IMG/VR virus record: IMGVR_UViG_3300032268_000759
Location: 1-64,000 of that record
Direction: 5' to 3' (one strand)
Length of the DNA: 64,000 nt
DNA from: an uncultured virus (IMG/VR IMGVR_UViG_3300032268_000759)
Taxonomy: Duplodnaviria > Heunggongvirae > Uroviricota > Caudoviricetes
Positions 4,772 through 27,340 of this stretch are shown here, piece by piece. Numbering within the stretch: the first letter of the stretch is position 1; each line of letters begins with the position of its first letter. The position numbers were made by a program, and so were the translations under genes. A model generated the notes under the pieces. That model made no database searches and was not told the DNA's origin. It saw only the letters and a program-made list of their open reading frames with translations.

Positions 4772-5821
4772 ATGTCAACAGAAACAAACACAAATTTAGA
4801 AACTAACCAAACAGCTGAAACACATTCAGATGGAACTTCAGGTGGTGCATCATTTGATAATACAACTACAGCGTCAGCTGGTGTATCAACAGGAGATGAG
4901 AACGCCTCAATTGGTATTGAAGTATCTGCTAAAACTGGAACTGAAGCATCAGTTGATGGTGGTTTAGATGGTAATAATGTTTATGTAGAAGCAAGTTACT
5001 CAGACACAACTGAAGTTCATGTTACAGTAGATGGTCAAGCTAATGCTGAAGGATTTGGTGTTAGTGGTACGGTAGATGCTTATGCTAAAACAGGAAACGA
5101 AGCTAGTCTTGAAGTGAGAGCAGGTGATGAAGGAGTAGTAGCTAATGGAAATTTATCAGCAGGATCAGCAGTTGGTGTAGATGGAGAAGGAACAGTTGAT
5201 TTAAGAGAAGGTTCAGTAACAGCAGGTGCAGGTGTATCAGTTGGAGAGCAAGTTGGTATTGGTGGTGGTGGAGAAGCCACTTTAGTAGATGGTGTTGCTA
5301 CTGTAGGAGTTAGTGGTGAAGTAGCAGTTTTATTAGGTGTTGATGTTGATTTAAGTGTGAGTATTGATACAAATCAAATAGCTGAAGATGCTAGATTAGC
5401 TGCTGAGAAATCTGAACAATTAGCTAAAGAAACTGAACGAATTGCAAAAGTAGCTGCTGAAGAAACTGAACGAAAAGCTAAAGAAGTAGCAGCTGAAACT
5501 GAAAGAAAAACAAAAGCAGCAGCTGATGAAGTTGAAAGAAAAGCTAAGGAAGCAGCAGCTGAAACAGAAAGAAAAACTAAGGAGGCAGCAGCAGCAGCTA
5601 AAAAAGAAACTGAAAGATTAGCTGCTGAGACTGAAAGAAAGACAAGGGAAGCAGCAGCTGAAACTGAGCGAAGGACTAGAGAAGCAGCAGAAGCAGCTCA
5701 AAGAGAAACAGAAAGATTGGCAGCAGAAACTGAAAGAAAAACTCGTGAGGCGGCTGAGGCGACAAAAAGAGAACTTGAAAAAGTAGCTAAAAAAGCTAAT
5801 CCTAAAAATTGGTTTAGATAA
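4772..5821 (+). CDS. Gly/Val/Ala-rich beta-repeat domain + 11-residue coiled-coil repeat protein
   Basis: N-terminal GxSAGxxVGV repeats; C-terminal (A)AAETERKT(R/K)E repeats; ends NPKNWFR. Confidence 0.8.
   Translation: MSTETNTNLETNQTAETHSDGTSGGASFDNTTTASAGVSTGDENASIGIEVSAKTGTEASVDGGLDGNNVYVEASYSDTTEVHVTVDGQANAEGFGVSGTVDAYAKTGNEASLEVRAGDEGVVANGNLSAGSAVGVDGEGTVDLREGSVTAGAGVSVGEQVGIGGGGEATLVDGVATVGVSGEVAVLLGVDVDLSVSIDTNQIAEDARLAAEKSEQLAKETERIAKVAAEETERKAKEVAAETERKTKAAADEVERKAKEAAAETERKTKEAAAAAKKETERLAAETERKTREAAAETERRTREAAEAAQRETERLAAETERKTREAAEATKRELEKVAKKANPKNWFR
5440..5780 (+). repeat. Coding tandem repeat (~33-nt unit GCAGCTGAAACTGAAAGAAAAAC...)
   Basis: About 9-10 imperfect copies encoding AETERK repeats. 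Confidence 0.8.
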
Positions 5822-5831
5822 AAAAAGGTTT

Positions 5832-5908
5832 GGTCAGGTGGGTGTAATGAGGGAAGGTCCCAAGTCCATTTAATGGTTACTTATCCGGTTCGAGTCCGGC
5901 CCTGACTA
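5832..5908 (+). ncRNA. tRNA-like RNA, non-canonical D/anticodon arms
   Basis: GGTCAGG/CCTGACT acceptor stem and CCGG-TTCGAGT-CCGG T arm; the middle lacks a canonical D arm and has a CCAT-TTA-ATGG hairpin. Confidence 0.65.
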
Positions 5909-5924
5909 CTAAATTAAAATAAAT

Positions 5925-15772: not shown

Positions 15773-15961
15773 ATGGAAAAAAATCATATTATTATCAACT
15801 ATTATGTTGATTGGAAATCCACAGATTGGATGAAAGAATTATTTGAATTGAATGGTTTTGATTCAGATAGTATTAATTGGGATACAATGTTTGGAGGTAG
15901 CCTAAACCCAGAAACACCTGGTCGTGCACCATCTTTAAATGATAATCAAAACGGAATATGA
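15773..15961 (+). CDS. Hypothetical protein
   Basis: ORF with own promoter. Confidence 0.6.
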   Translation: MEKNHIIINYYVDWKSTDWMKELFELNGFDSDSINWDTMFGGSLNPETPGRAPSLNDNQNGI

Positions 15962-16419
15962 ACAAAGAATTTATACCTTACGAACAAGCATTAGCTCTTA
16001 AAGAGTTAGGATTTAATGAACCTTGTTTAGGATATTGGAGAAATGAAGATTTACCAAATCCTATAACTATAGGTCAATATACTACTAAAGAAGATATAGA
16101 GTATGAAATTAGTGGTCAAGATGAGTATCATAATTTTAAAAATATAATTGCACTTGCACCACTTTACCAACAAGCATTTAGATGGTTTAGAGAGAAGTAT
16201 AAAATGCATGCAGAAATAACATGGTCTCCTTCTTATGAATATGAACCTGAAAAATGGTCAGATGCTATCTATGAAATAACTTTTGTAAATGTATCTTATA
16301 CTAAAGAATGGGAAGCTGAGTCTCCAGATATGCAAAGAGCAAATGGTAAACAATTGACACACGAAGAAGCAGAACTTGAATGTTTGATTAAGTTAATAGA
16401 AATAGTAAAAACTAAATAA
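15958..16419 (+). CDS. Bacteroidota-phage conserved protein (KEFIPYEQALALKELGF family)
   Basis: ALKELGFNEPC...APLYQQAFRWFREK...EEAELECL.KLIEIVK. Confidence 0.8.
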   Translation: MNKEFIPYEQALALKELGFNEPCLGYWRNEDLPNPITIGQYTTKEDIEYEISGQDEYHNFKNIIALAPLYQQAFRWFREKYKMHAEITWSPSYEYEPEKWSDAIYEITFVNVSYTKEWEAESPDMQRANGKQLTHEEAELECLIKLIEIVKTK

Positions 16420-16420
16420 C

Positions 16421-17038
16421 ATGAAAATAGGAGATAAAGTAAGATTTACAAATGATGGTAGTTGCTCAGCACCTACAGGTTCAACAGCAAGAGTAATTGG
16501 AATCAAAGCACCTTGGATTCAAGTAGAGTGGATTGATAAAGGAGATAGTGGACAAATGAATGGAAGTTACTATCCAGAACATTTTGAAGTAATTGAAGAA
16601 GTACAAAATAATAAAACAGTTATGTCAAAACAAAAACTAACAGTATCGGTTACTGATGTATTAGAGATTCATAGGATTGCTTGCACTAATTGGAAACAGA
16701 TAATTGTAAATTACTTATCAAGAGTAAATTCAGATCAAGAAATTACATTTAATCAAGAAGAAATAGATGAAATGTTTGAGGCAGCTACCAACTACCAAAT
16801 ACCATTACTTGAAAGAATATTTGGTGTACAATATACTGAATCTACATTAAAAGGTATAGCTAATGGTAAACCATTGTTTAGAGAAGATGCTAATGGAGAT
16901 GGAAAAGCGGGTATGATTGAGGTAAGAGCAGAAGATGAATATAAAAATAAAGCGTTTTGGTTGAGTCACATTTATAATTGGGAAATGAAAGAAGATAATA
17001 GTGGTATGTTAGTTTTAATTCCAACACTTAAAGACTAA
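16421..17038 (+). CDS. Hypothetical protein
   Basis: 205-aa ORF. Confidence 0.75.
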   Translation: MKIGDKVRFTNDGSCSAPTGSTARVIGIKAPWIQVEWIDKGDSGQMNGSYYPEHFEVIEEVQNNKTVMSKQKLTVSVTDVLEIHRIACTNWKQIIVNYLSRVNSDQEITFNQEEIDEMFEAATNYQIPLLERIFGVQYTESTLKGIANGKPLFREDANGDGKAGMIEVRAEDEYKNKAFWLSHIYNWEMKEDNSGMLVLIPTLKD

Positions 17039-17733
17039 TGAAACAACTAATATTAATATTTACAATTCTTAGTATTGTTTTAATAATCAGCAATGTTTCA
17101 GCTCAAATGTCTTTTAACAACAAAACTGTGAGCGTAAGCGGCTGGGGGAATGATAATAATCCGAAAACTACCTTATGTGTCATAACCAATAATTCACCAT
17201 CTATAGCTGATTCAATGATTAATTGGTCAATAATATCTTTTGATATCCCAACAGGTTGGCAGTTTGATTTCTGTGATCCTTATGATTGTGTTTCTAATAT
17301 AGAATTAGGTTCTAACAACTTGTTTAAACTTAAAACTAAGACTTCAGGTCCTTTAAAAGGAGATTTCTATAGTAAATCAATCCCAGGTAATGCTACAATT
17401 AAAATACAATTGATATATACTAACAATTCGCACAATGCTGATACTATAATACTGATGGCAAGGGGTTGGGCAACAGGGTTAAATAATGTTAAAAAACAAA
17501 GTGAGGTAACTTTTTTTCCTAACCCAACAAAGGATATTATTACATTAAAATATGAAACAATAAAAGCAATTAATATAACTGTTTACAATGTTATGGGTGC
17601 AAAAGTAAAATCATTTATACATAGCAGTAACGAAACTTCCTTAAATATTAGCGATTTAGAAAAAGGATTGTACCATATTAGATTTTCAGACAATGGAAAC
17701 GTAACATCAAAATCATTTGTAAAAACCGAATAA
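17038..17733 (+). CDS. Secreted protein with T9SS type A C-terminal sorting domain
   Basis: Signal peptide VSA|Q; CTD FFPNPTKD...VYNVMG.KV...ISDLEKGLYHIR...KSFVK. Confidence 0.9.
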   Translation: MKQLILIFTILSIVLIISNVSAQMSFNNKTVSVSGWGNDNNPKTTLCVITNNSPSIADSMINWSIISFDIPTGWQFDFCDPYDCVSNIELGSNNLFKLKTKTSGPLKGDFYSKSIPGNATIKIQLIYTNNSHNADTIILMARGWATGLNNVKKQSEVTFFPNPTKDIITLKYETIKAINITVYNVMGAKVKSFIHSSNETSLNISDLEKGLYHIRFSDNGNVTSKSFVKTE

Positions 17734-20000: not shown

Positions 20001-20221
20001 GAAGTAATTACTTAATAGTAATTAAGTACTTCAAAGGAGGACTAGTCATATATACCTATATAAGTAGATACGATTAGGTGATATAGTAGGTGACAAGTTG
20101 ACAGGGCATAGTACAAGTTAAGGGGTCAGGGATCCACCCTTTCACCCACCCAGCCAAACTAAAGTTCATCGACAAAGTATATACTAGGCTTGGCCATTTA
20201 ATAAAAAAATGTTATATTAGG

Positions 20222-23796: not shown

Positions 23797-24678
23797 ATGA
23801 AAAACATTGAAACAACAAAACGCGGAAAAGGTAGACCAAAAAAGGTTCAAAATGTAACTTATGTACCATCAGTTATTAACTTTGATCAGGTAACTAAGTT
23901 AAACAGTTTAGATATTGATCCTAAAATGTTAGAATCAATGCTAAGTGGTTTAGGTAACATGGATAAGTTTATATCACACGAAGGTGGTGTTCCATGTGCA
24001 AGTAATATAATGGGGATAGGTGACCCAGGAGTAGGTAAAACAACTATATTATTAGATGTATTATCAGGAATTCAAAATAGGGGTCGTAGAGTGTTATTTA
24101 TAAGTGGTGAAATGGGAAGAAAGCAGATGTATAAATATACAAATCGCTTTCCACAATTTGGAAATATACAAACATTATTCATGAGTGATTATTTAGAATA
24201 CAATACAAAGGATGTTGTAGAACAAATATTAAATCAAGGATGGGATTGTGTATTGATTGATTCAATTGCTGAGATTATTGATGGTGTGAGGGATGATAAC
24301 AATTGGGATAGGAAAATGGCTGAGTCATGGTTAGTTGATATGTGTGTTAAGATGAATAAGGGTGAGAATGATAAAAATATATTTACATCATTCTTATTAA
24401 TTCAGCAAGTAACAAAATCAGGTGTGTTTGTAGGTTCAAATAAACTTAAACATTTAACTGATGCAATGTTAGAGATGAGAAGAAGAAGTGAAAAAGATGG
24501 TGGTGGAACATATATGATGTTTTCAAAGAATAGAAATGGTGAGAGTGGAATGGAAATGGGTTATGATTTAGGAGCAAATTCAATTATATATGGTTCAATT
24601 TCAGAACGTTTTGAGGATGAGGATGAAGATAATGGGGTTGAGTTTGAGTTGACCAACCCAGATATGTTGAGAGGTTAA
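23797..24678 (+). CDS. RadA/Sms-like RecA-family ATPase with N-terminal AT-hook
   Basis: GDPGVGKTT, LFISGEM, VLIDSI, QVTKSG..VGSNKLKHLTDA, KNRNG; N-terminal KRGKGRPKK. Confidence 0.85.
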   Translation: MKNIETTKRGKGRPKKVQNVTYVPSVINFDQVTKLNSLDIDPKMLESMLSGLGNMDKFISHEGGVPCASNIMGIGDPGVGKTTILLDVLSGIQNRGRRVLFISGEMGRKQMYKYTNRFPQFGNIQTLFMSDYLEYNTKDVVEQILNQGWDCVLIDSIAEIIDGVRDDNNWDRKMAESWLVDMCVKMNKGENDKNIFTSFLLIQQVTKSGVFVGSNKLKHLTDAMLEMRRRSEKDGGGTYMMFSKNRNGESGMEMGYDLGANSIIYGSISERFEDEDEDNGVEFELTNPDMLRG

Positions 24679-25637: not shown

Positions 25638-25790
25638 ATGCAAAATCAACACTTACGAATTGCTAAACAGTTAATTGAACTAAAGTACAATATCCAAGTA
25701 CTGGGTATTGAATTTGAAGATGGTAGTGGTAATAAATTTATTGTTACTGAGTCATCTAATCCAGCTAAGAAACGGTTTATTGTTTTATAG
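25638..25790 (+). CDS. Early small protein (50 aa, not in track)
   Basis: MQNQHLRIAK...IEFEDGSGNKF...RFIVL. Confidence 0.6.
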   Translation: MQNQHLRIAKQLIELKYNIQVLGIEFEDGSGNKFIVTESSNPAKKRFIVL

Positions 25791-25852
25791 ACTGATTTGG
25801 CTCACCGGATTAAGGATGTTATATTTACCGAGTAATAAAAATAATAAATAAT

Positions 25853-26071
25853 ATGAAGACAGATAGAATGACAGCGCAAGACAGAGTGTTAAACCAGTTC
25901 AAGCACACATTAAGAACATCAGGCTCAATTGATGAAAAACCATTAACACTGGCAGAACAGATAGCGCAAGTGGATTCAGCACCAGTAGTTAAACGAGCGA
26001 GTGATGATTCAGAAATAGAAAAGCGTTATAACACTCCAATCTATAGTGAGGTGAGAGCGGGTAAGAAATAA
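25853..26071 (+). CDS. Early small hypothetical protein
   Basis: Own promoter 25796. Confidence 0.7.
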   Translation: MKTDRMTAQDRVLNQFKHTLRTSGSIDEKPLTLAEQIAQVDSAPVVKRASDDSEIEKRYNTPIYSEVRAGKK

Positions 26072-26078
26072 ATAATAT

Positions 26079-26153
26079 AGTCAGGTAGTTTAATGGTAAA
26101 ACGGCAGACTTTAAAATCTGCAACTACATGGTCAGTACATGTCCTGACTACCA
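26079..26153 (+). tRNA. Aberrant tRNA-like RNA: 8-nt anticodon loop CUUUAAAA, non-canonical T loop, encoded CCA
   Basis: AGTCAGG/CCTGACT-A-CCA; D stem GTTT/AAAC; anticodon stem GCAGA/TCTGC; T stem ACATG/CATGT with loop GTCAGTA. Confidence 0.75.
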
Positions 26154-26227
26154 TCGCAAGTAGATTTGACAGCCGCGTAAAGGTGCTGCTACTAAAAAAC
26201 TCAATGACTGATGGAAAGACATCAAAC

Positions 26228-26375
26228 AGTCAGGTGGCGGAATGGTAGACGCTATTAAACGAAGTACAAGTTTGGTGAAGAAAGTATATACGAGAGAACA
26301 TCATATCAACGAACGGGTATGCTCTACGGGTCAAATTTTTGACAGAACTTACAGGTTCGAATCCTGTCCTGACTG
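26228..26375 (+). ncRNA. tRNA-like RNA with a 97-nt insert replacing the anticodon/variable arms
   Basis: AGTCAGG-TG-GCG-GAATGGTAGA-CGC (Leu/Ser-type D arm) ... ACAGG-TTCGAAT-CCTGT-CCTGACT-G. Confidence 0.75.
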
Positions 26376-26436
26376 CTAAACATGTTTGGCCTCCCGATTC
26401 AGTTATGTTATATTTACACTGTAATAAAAAACAAAT

Positions 26437-26736
26437 ATGATGAATCCAAAAATTAGAGAAGCGGCATTAGATTTTATTAAATCACAAATTAGACCAGGAC
26501 ACACATTATCAGGTCAGGAATTATATGATGTGTTTGATGTGGAACGTACATTATTTAATGAGCATTTTGGGGGTATGACAAAAACTGAATTGAGTCTATA
26601 CACCAGGTTTGTTACATGGTTAGACAATTCAAGTATGTGGAAATCGGATTTGACAGTGGATGAATTGTTTGAGGTATTCACAGGGATAGAATATGATTTA
26701 TTAATGGAATGTTATGAAGATAGCTTATATGAATAA
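26437..26736 (+). CDS. Early hypothetical protein
   Basis: Own promoter 26385. Confidence 0.7.
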   Translation: MMNPKIREAALDFIKSQIRPGHTLSGQELYDVFDVERTLFNEHFGGMTKTELSLYTRFVTWLDNSSMWKSDLTVDELFEVFTGIEYDLLMECYEDSLYE

Positions 26737-27019: not shown

Positions 27020-27340
27020 GCTGATTAGAGCGGCCATTACATACTCCTTTTTCACATGGTTACATCCCCTATCTTTGTGCGTACGGTATACGTACGTGGT
27101 GCGAGAATGGCACGTATCTATAACGCGCGTTGCTATCCATATATACGTGCGCTATGATATCGCGTGGGTTAGACGAACCTTCACATCGAGTATAACCTTT
27201 ACGCATCGATTTTGTATATACATATATACTCGCCACAACCACAAACACAATTCTCAAAATACCATTTTGACCACATTCCACTAGGATGTGGATTTTCTCT
27301 TTTAAAAAAACTTTCCACATCGATAAAGTATATACATATA
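27020..27340. other. Non-coding, CpG/palindrome-rich element
   Basis: CGTACG, GTATAC, ACGTACGT, AACGCGCGTT, GATATC, ATCGAT x2, GTATATAC x2; C-rich tract. Confidence 0.65.

Follow-up and report, generated by a model that had tools for sequence, protein, structure and literature searches.

A tRNA-shaped element and its surroundings

The window, meaning here the whole stretch of DNA that was analysed, is the initial 64 kb of a freshwater virus record, which is complete at 154,840 bp and carries direct terminal repeats. On its plus strand, at positions 26228-26375, lies an element of 148 nt that has the shell of a tRNA-Leu and no anticodon arm. Its letters were re-read, and these coordinates, the D arm and the T arm agree with the first-pass annotation. 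The 5' strand of the acceptor stem (AGTCAGG, 26228-26234, with an A1:U72 pair at its end) pairs perfectly over 7 bp with positions 26368-26374. It is followed at 26235-26252 by U8-G9 and what reads as a D arm of the class-II tRNA-Leu type. The D arm itself (26237-26252) consists of a 3-bp stem and a loop with A14, A15, G18G19, and A20a; it is letter-identical to a class-II tRNA-Leu D arm, and its 20-mer also matches genuine tRNA-Leu genes. The place of the anticodon and variable arms is taken by a core of 98 nt (26253-26350), of which the last nucleotide, 26350, is the equivalent of U48; the insert had earlier been counted as 97 nt, starting at 26254 and ending at the same position. Downstream of the core, a T arm with the strands ACAGG, TTCGAAT, and CCTGT (26351-26367) was read from the sequence and contains GGTTCGAATCC, and the element closes with the 3' strand of the acceptor stem (CCTGACT, 26368-26374) and the discriminator G73 (26375). 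The next base is a C (26376), and CCA is not encoded.

The acceptor stem, the D arm, the T arm, and the elbow nucleotides (G18G19 and T54-Psi55-C56) are thus all present, and the stems are stable when enforced in folding. However, neither default ARAGORN nor Rfam called the element as a tRNA. The Rfam tRNA model (RF00005) matched the T arm alone, with 14 bits and E = 9 as compared to a gathering score of 29, and no other Rfam family reached even E = 10. The element was found to lack a 5-bp anticodon stem closed by a loop of 7 nt with U33, an anticodon, and purine 37. The best hairpin at the anticodon position is a weak candidate of 8 bp, including three G-U pairs, with a 9-nt loop that lacks U33 (26253-26277); it is a thermodynamic prediction from the shell-enforced fold.

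For the whole element, the predicted folding energy is -38.8 kcal/mol (z = -2.3), and the 98-nt core alone has a folding z of about -1.0. Two nearly isoenergetic folds were obtained, one with the shell enforced (-36.0 kcal/mol) and one unconstrained (-36.5 kcal/mol). A second hairpin (26291-26328), composed of the outer strands CGAGAG and CTCTACG, the inner strands CATATC and GGTATG, and an 8-nt loop, is predicted in both folds. Two of the pairings that had been proposed from inspection of the letters belong to it: CATATC with GGTATG (26302-26307 and 26316-26321) forms with one G-U pair, and AGAG with CTCT also pairs in the predicted fold. The third pairing proposed, GTCAAA with TTTGAC, corresponds to a third hairpin (26330-26343) that is present in the shell-constrained fold with 5 bp and a 4-nt loop; 5 bp is its maximum, since the 6 bp originally suggested would leave a loop of 2 nt. 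This hairpin competes with a long-range helix of the unconstrained fold. As this type of core shows no sequence variation among its copies, its fold has no support from covariation.

The core also contains the 11-mer AAAGTATATAC, which occurs four times in the window compared to 0.24 times expected, and the positions listed for it previously, in the core and elsewhere in the window, are correct. At 20174-20184 and 27325-27335 (plus strand), the 11-mer forms part of a longer repeat that is located a few bases upstream of promoter-like sites of the type TTGGC...TATATT. This repeat may be an upstream element of early phage promoters. Because two of the copies belong to a promoter-upstream repeat, the presence of the motif in the core may be due to chance, and the 11-mer was rejected as a functional link; the core copy has no promoter after it.

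Further tRNA-like genes are found in the window. A gene at 26079-26153 (plus strand), 75 nt upstream of the element, was called by ARAGORN and reached 49.5 bits with Rfam; its anticodon loop has 8 nt, its T loop is unusual, CCA is encoded, and the acceptor stem is the same as in the shell. Since this stem is precisely the one shared by the shell family described below, the gene is probably a relative and not an ordinary decoder. A third shell-type element, at 5832-5909 (plus strand), pairs GGTCAGG with CCTGACT in its acceptor stem, ends in an A73-C tail, and has a canonical T arm and a degenerate D arm. It starts 10 nt past the stop codon of the open reading frame (ORF) 4772-5821, and a near-identical type is present at L119:3062-3140. 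No RNA-related protein was found to be conserved next to shell elements; the neighbours that recur are an RNase H-like protein, a methyltransferase, ERF, and the large and small terminase subunits. On viral contigs of smaller size, a terminase gene, small or large (8 and 12 loci), is often found no more than about 40 to 200 nt away from the shell, as seen for L013:5836-7170 and L098:10155-10574. The early region of the window also holds an ORF of 293 aa (23797-24678, plus strand) with weak matches to RecA/KaiC-type ATPases near the curated cut-offs, namely, 26.8 bits for KaiC, for which the cut-off is 26.6 bits, and values just below the cut-offs for the others.

One shell and many cores

IMG/VR was scanned with the 20-nt D-arm motif, which identified at least 120 viral loci. 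About one quarter of the D-arm loci listed are ordinary tRNA-Leu genes with other acceptor stems, and the remaining ones listed have the same acceptor stem, D arm, T arm, and A-C tail, combined with cores that differ wholly in sequence and length. The resulting AGTCAGG-shell family was defined by the acceptor strands (A/G)GTCAGG and CCTGACT, U8-G9, a Leu-type D arm, the T arm ACAGG/TTCGAAT/CCTGT, a purine at position 73 followed by a C tail, and a variable core without an anticodon arm. Every one of these features is present at 26228-26376. Among the matches listed, a first pass provided 88 shell elements with 72 distinct cores, and a wider pass provided 151 shell elements, 139 of them distinct, in 88 viral or metagenome loci. 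In the wider pass the elements measured 62 to 195 nt, with a median of 102 nt, and up to 9 of them were present per locus; the cores range from about 24 to 170 nt and fall into 80 singleton types and some 20 small clusters. Arrays of shell elements sit within clusters of genuine tRNA genes.

Among 94 elements picked by the D arm alone, the exact AGTCAGG/CCTGACT stem was found in 55, and compensatory acceptor variants were present in 7 more. The exact T stem was found in 58 of the 94, and its variants are compensatory as well. These compensatory variants in both stems argue that the shell is under selection as RNA. At the 3' end, approximately 86% of the copies carry A73-C, and approximately 10% carry G73-C.

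The cores were found to have no motif in common, as the few 5- and 6-mers that are mildly enriched occur in at most 20% of the cores each. They also have no shared architecture, their helices occupying the same positions as in shuffled cores, and are on average weakly structured (mean z of -0.78). In 16 loci that bear arrays, Rfam was searched for known families that might serve as cargo and returned tRNAs and one tmRNA only. A full-length tmRNA (98.7 bits) is encoded at L116:2660-3047 (minus strand) in the tRNA cluster of a viral contig, and a shell element whose core measures 131 nt lies in the same cluster. One conserved sub-type, approximately 92 nt long (L102:2809-2901, L011:2390-2480, and L042:13264-13355), has no D arm, and its core contains a second T-arm-like hairpin, so that one tRNA-like piece is nested in another.

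The core of the 26228 element recurs with 98 of 98 nucleotides identical in the metagenome contig L131, in which the 500 nt on each side do not align. An identical core in another phage, amid unrelated flanks, speaks against a unique recent insertion that is absent from all relatives. In this contig the same element (L131:1249-1406, minus strand) lies directly upstream of a gene (L131:583-1010) that resembles window positions 15955-16424, with 88 to 93% identity over two short blocks; in the present phage, that gene is 10 kb away. This arrangement indicates that the RNA gene and small early genes have been reshuffled between related phages. Four RNA-library runs, which come from four studies (freshwater sediment, freshwater, lake water, and a mosquito metagenome), contained contigs with the whole element at 95 to 100% identity and unlike flanks. 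Most of these contigs carry A73; contigs from RNA libraries can stem from DNA carry-over, so that their presence there does not equal transcription. Another 16 runs from lakes, rivers, and estuaries, in which 7 to 33% of the sampled words are present, were left out of this evidence. Searches for relatives through the flanking proteins provided a single locus, which ended at the contig end, in one case and none in the other, and viral_contigs contained no exact match to a 20-nt piece of the core.

At least eight other pairs have elements that are 89 to 100% identical between flanks that cannot be aligned. Such whole-element identity in unrelated flanks could in part be due to the unit having been transferred recently, and not to selection. 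In three syntenic pairs that belong to other core types and have flanks of 85 to 93% identity, 0, 0, and 3 core positions differ, whereas the flank rates predict about 4, 11, and 7 differences (P = 0.012, 5e-6, and 0.096, respectively). These pairs, in which the cores are more conserved than the flanks, point to purifying selection acting on the core. In clusters A, B, and C, the cores show G-U-compatible changes and some two-sided compensatory ones.

The string formed by the acceptor and D arm was also searched in one genome per species for 185,579 prokaryote species, which resulted in 8 matches, all of them on contigs of metagenome-assembled genomes (MAGs). Several of these contigs were binned as Chitinophagaceae or Sediminibacterium, and within the corresponding MAGs the shell is confined to the same contigs. 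As far as these genomes tell, the family is phage-only, and its acceptor sequence is private to phages. The tRNA-Leu(CAA) of the Chitinophagaceae and Sediminibacterium MAGs has the D arm of the shell with one extra T in the loop, a T arm nearly identical to that of the shell, and an A-C end with no CCA encoded; in its acceptor stem it differs from the shell. Canonical tRNA-Leu genes with this combination of D arm and T arm were present in 15 of 301 Bacteroidota genomes versus none of 151 genomes of a control phylum (that of a Neisseriaceae-labelled MAG; phylum names are those of the MAG record titles). The window also encodes, at 17038-17733 (plus strand), a protein with a Por_Secre_tail domain, the C-terminal sorting domain of the T9SS (52 bits), which points to a Bacteroidota host. 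Taken together, the match of the tRNA-Leu arms and the T9SS-tailed protein indicate that the host is very probably a member of the Bacteroidota. The shell is very probably a phage derivative of the Bacteroidota host's tRNA-Leu that copies its elbow and minihelix.

Readings of the element

Phage tRNA genes are normally interpreted as helpers in codon usage or as spares against tRNA-cutting defences. The family described here appears to retain only those parts of tRNA-Leu that are read by maturation enzymes and by leucyl-tRNA synthetase (LeuRS), and to have given over the decoding half to conserved, exchangeable modules. RNase P and the enzymes that trim the 3' end, add CCA, and modify the elbow read the stack of acceptor stem and T arm and the D/T elbow; the parts that the shell retains are exactly those read by tRNA maturation enzymes. 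Furthermore, the LeuRS of Escherichia coli needs A73, A15-U48, G18G19, A20a, and contacts of the D loop with the T loop, still charges tRNA-Leu from which the anticodon and variable arms have been removed, and is repelled by G73 as an antideterminant (PMC9976931). The family consensus retains every E. coli-type LeuRS identity element; because this set is complete, most members are probably leucylated, and leucylation is a likely property of the family. It is doubtful for the 26228 copy, which has A15, U48, G18G19, and A20a but carries G73, which counters E. coli LeuRS, so that this copy may not be leucylated; the same core carries A73 elsewhere.

The reading that we favour, at about even odds, is that the gene encodes a non-decoding, tRNA-Leu-shaped carrier that is matured by host tRNA enzymes and of which the core is the selected cargo. 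The first-pass annotation had suggested a cargo or guide RNA in a tRNA scaffold, or else a mini-tmRNA. The cargo part of this proposal is upheld by the invariant shell, the unrelated cores, and the maintenance of cores across unrelated flanks, whereas the guide part found no support and the mini-tmRNA part was rejected. For a guide, the complementarity of the core to the phage's own 155-kb genome does not exceed chance, the best opposite-strand match being of 13 nt with E = 0.17. For a tmRNA, the pair U3:A70 stands in place of G3:U70 (that this alanine identity is lacking had been noted correctly), RF00023 gave no match at E <= 10, and default ARAGORN made no call. A tag was called by ARAGORN at a relaxed threshold only, as one of 9 such noise calls in the 64-kb window, and some cores of the family, at 24 nt, are too short for a tag reading frame. 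A Y RNA of the YrlA type was likewise rejected, as RF02553 did not match and TROVE, the domain of Ro60, is absent from the 154.8-kb genome in searches that detected the positive controls. The 45-codon ORF from the ATG at 26242 to the TAA at 26379 exists, and its reservation as possibly fortuitous is in line with the absence of frame conservation across the family: 24 of 79 members can be read through from the D-loop ATG, and the frames are split 29/27/23, for which reason a coding function was rejected.

In the carrier reading, the gene would be transcribed early, either in one transcript with the upstream gene and the 26079 tRNA-like gene or immediately after them. RNase P would cut the 5' end at A26228, host enzymes would trim the 3' end and add CCA, and the product, owing to its tRNA body, would be stable and about 150 nt long. 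The core would then be displayed at the place of the anticodon and variable arms and act on some protein or RNA target, and phages with arrays would carry many different cores in one type of shell. Several observations weigh against the carrier reading. The cores share no motif and show no architecture beyond that of shuffled sequences, and their weak average structure would also fit a tolerated filler. In addition, no partner protein is conserved nearby, there is no target in the phage's own genome, and the G73 of the 26228 copy departs from the A73 of the family.

These same features of the cores bring into consideration that the shell itself is active, serving as a decoy or sponge that imitates host tRNA-Leu for a tRNA-binding factor, with the core as a tolerated spacer. 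Candidate factors are LeuRS, an enzyme that modifies or processes tRNAs, or a defensive nuclease or transferase directed against class-II tRNAs or their acceptor ends. The invariance of the shell over cores without common motif or architecture, its host-type tRNA-Leu elbow with the full LeuRS identity set, the presence of up to 9 copies per phage inside tRNA clusters, and the location of the gene in the early-gene region are all compatible with such a decoy. It is nevertheless judged unlikely, since a sponge would be served by identical copies, yet the arrays hold unrelated cores of 24 to 170 nt; moreover, the cores of the syntenic pairs exceed their flanks in conservation, structure-compatible changes are seen, and an acceptor stem that is private to phages and not that of the host fits a pure mimic poorly. 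Still less probable is a role in punctuation or recombination, in which the shell would provide an RNase P/Z site and a 3'-end stabilizer for early mRNAs, or homology arms for the shuffling of cassettes exchanged between co-infecting phages, and the RNA would have no function in trans. Tandem arrays of 5 to 9 elements among genuine tRNA genes need no punctuation, and processing requires neither an invariant acceptor sequence nor conserved cores. This has to be set against the start of the elements at 5832 and 26079 only 8 to 10 nt past the stop codons of upstream ORFs, the lack of an intrinsic terminator in 25700-26600, the occurrence of the same element beside different genes in different phages, and its frequent position next to terminase genes in small phages.

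Splicing to a decoding tRNA-Leu, as expected of an intron-containing gene, is very improbable. The shell does resemble tRNA-Leu, the ARAGORN intron mode proposes a tRNA-Leu(CAA) with a 70-nt intron at 26228, and "enigmatic" conserved tRNA introns have been reported in Lak megaphages (PMC6784885). However, of the pairs in the anticodon stem so proposed, three are A-U and one is G-U, and the stem also has one U-U mismatch. The intron mode made calls for 73 of 80 real elements and for 70 of 80 elements with shuffled cores, with anticodons scattered across amino acids throughout the family; given these equal rates, the calls carry no information. Group I introns have a conserved P3-P8 catalytic core and a length of approximately 200 nt or more, so that 98 nt is far below their range. 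The first-pass annotation was right in regarding the insert as too short for such an intron, RF00028 did not match, and no halves of an anticodon stem flank the core. A search of the complete phage genome revealed no RtcB, RNA_ligase, or PolyA_pol (the family of CCA-adding enzymes). Five joints in public RNA-library contigs bridge the two shell halves, and three of them hold 51, 55, or 103 other letters, which are other cores. Among these assembled contigs, with the intervening letters known for three of the five joints, none joins the halves with nothing in between, which counts mildly against an intron. There is no sign of splicing in these data. The gene might also be a decaying tRNA-Leu pseudogene with a chance insertion and without function, which is equally hard to credit. 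The missing anticodon arm, the G73 in place of A73, and the weakly structured core would suit decay; the perfect pairing of the shell, the recurrence of the identical core both in a second phage and in contigs from four more samples, and a family of at least 139 distinct members with an intact shell do not.

A broader form of the carrier reading, which we put forward tentatively and regard as rather less probable than not, is that freshwater Bacteroidota phages keep a horizontally exchanged library of effector RNAs with tRNA-Leu bodies, a natural "tRNA scaffold" system. If so, the invariant shell, private to phages, would ensure that the RNA is stable and that host enzymes mature it and probably leucylate it, with every swappable core engaging a host or phage target of its own, for instance as a protein sponge, anti-defence decoy, or regulator. 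Such elements would constitute a novel class of phage RNA with a regulatory or anti-defence role. Should the carrier reading prove correct, phages would have reached the trick that RNA biochemists use for the expression of foreign RNA in a tRNA scaffold, and every phage tRNA cluster may hide unannotated effector RNAs. The family is also a warning for annotation, as tRNA finders miss shell genes or assign arbitrary anticodons or introns to them.

Relation to known systems

The shell family is absent from Rfam 15, and full-text literature searches gave no description of it. Among cultured phages, blastn against 50,697 GenBank phage records returned only matches of 21 to 24 nt to ordinary tRNA arms. 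Judged by its sequence features, the 26228 element belongs to a real, widespread, and uncatalogued phage-only family of tRNA-Leu-shaped RNAs that are predicted to be non-decoding. The family shares with the tRNA-Leu(CAA) of Bacteroidota the 7-bp acceptor stem, U8-G9, the 3-bp D stem, U48, TTCGAAT, and the A-C tail; unlike a class-II tRNA-Leu, the 26228 element has no anticodon arm or recognisable variable arm and carries an unrelated core of 98 nt instead.

Other non-decoding RNAs are comparable in part. Like tmRNA (RF00023), the element combines a tRNA-like module with a putative functional domain at the place of the missing anticodon arm, but it has no G3:U70, tag ORF, or pseudoknots. Y RNAs of the YrlA type (RF02553) are also non-decoding RNAs with a tRNA-like module, which is said to be internal and not terminal. 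The recently described bacterial tRNA mimics (skipping-rope, DUF2693-FD, and salivarius-1) have folds different from that of the shell. Lak megaphages, with a Prevotella (Bacteroidota) host, possess oversized tRNA genes with inserts that are identical across cohorts, and anticodons were assigned to these genes after removal of a predicted intron (PMC6784885). The shell sequence is different from that of the Lak genes, and no anticodon arm can be restored in the 26228 element; the enigmatic Lak introns are a possible cousin of the shell family.

The nearest natural analogue is the species 1 RNA of phage T4 (rnaC), which is encoded in the T4 tRNA cluster and annotated as a "small, stable RNA." Both RNAs are phage-encoded and have a canonical T arm, a terminal stem in which the 5' end is paired with the 3' end, and a large structured centre, and their lengths are similar (139 nt for rnaC and 148 nt for the 26228 element). 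However, rnaC has no sequence similarity to the element, no Leu-type D arm was seen in it, and it is a single gene of a phage with an E. coli host, whereas the shell family has one shell and many cores. We know of no account of the function of T4 species 1 RNA; if the carrier reading holds, this RNA would gain relatives with a testable function, and rnaC-like RNAs would obtain a first functional context.

The nearest designed analogue is the engineered "tRNA scaffold" of Ponchon and Dardel, in which an arbitrary RNA replaces the anticodon region of a tRNA and the tRNA body reportedly provides correct processing and stability in bacteria (cf. PMC3753655). That scaffold is a laboratory design; the natural element, known here from its sequence, replaces the whole anticodon arm together with the variable region.
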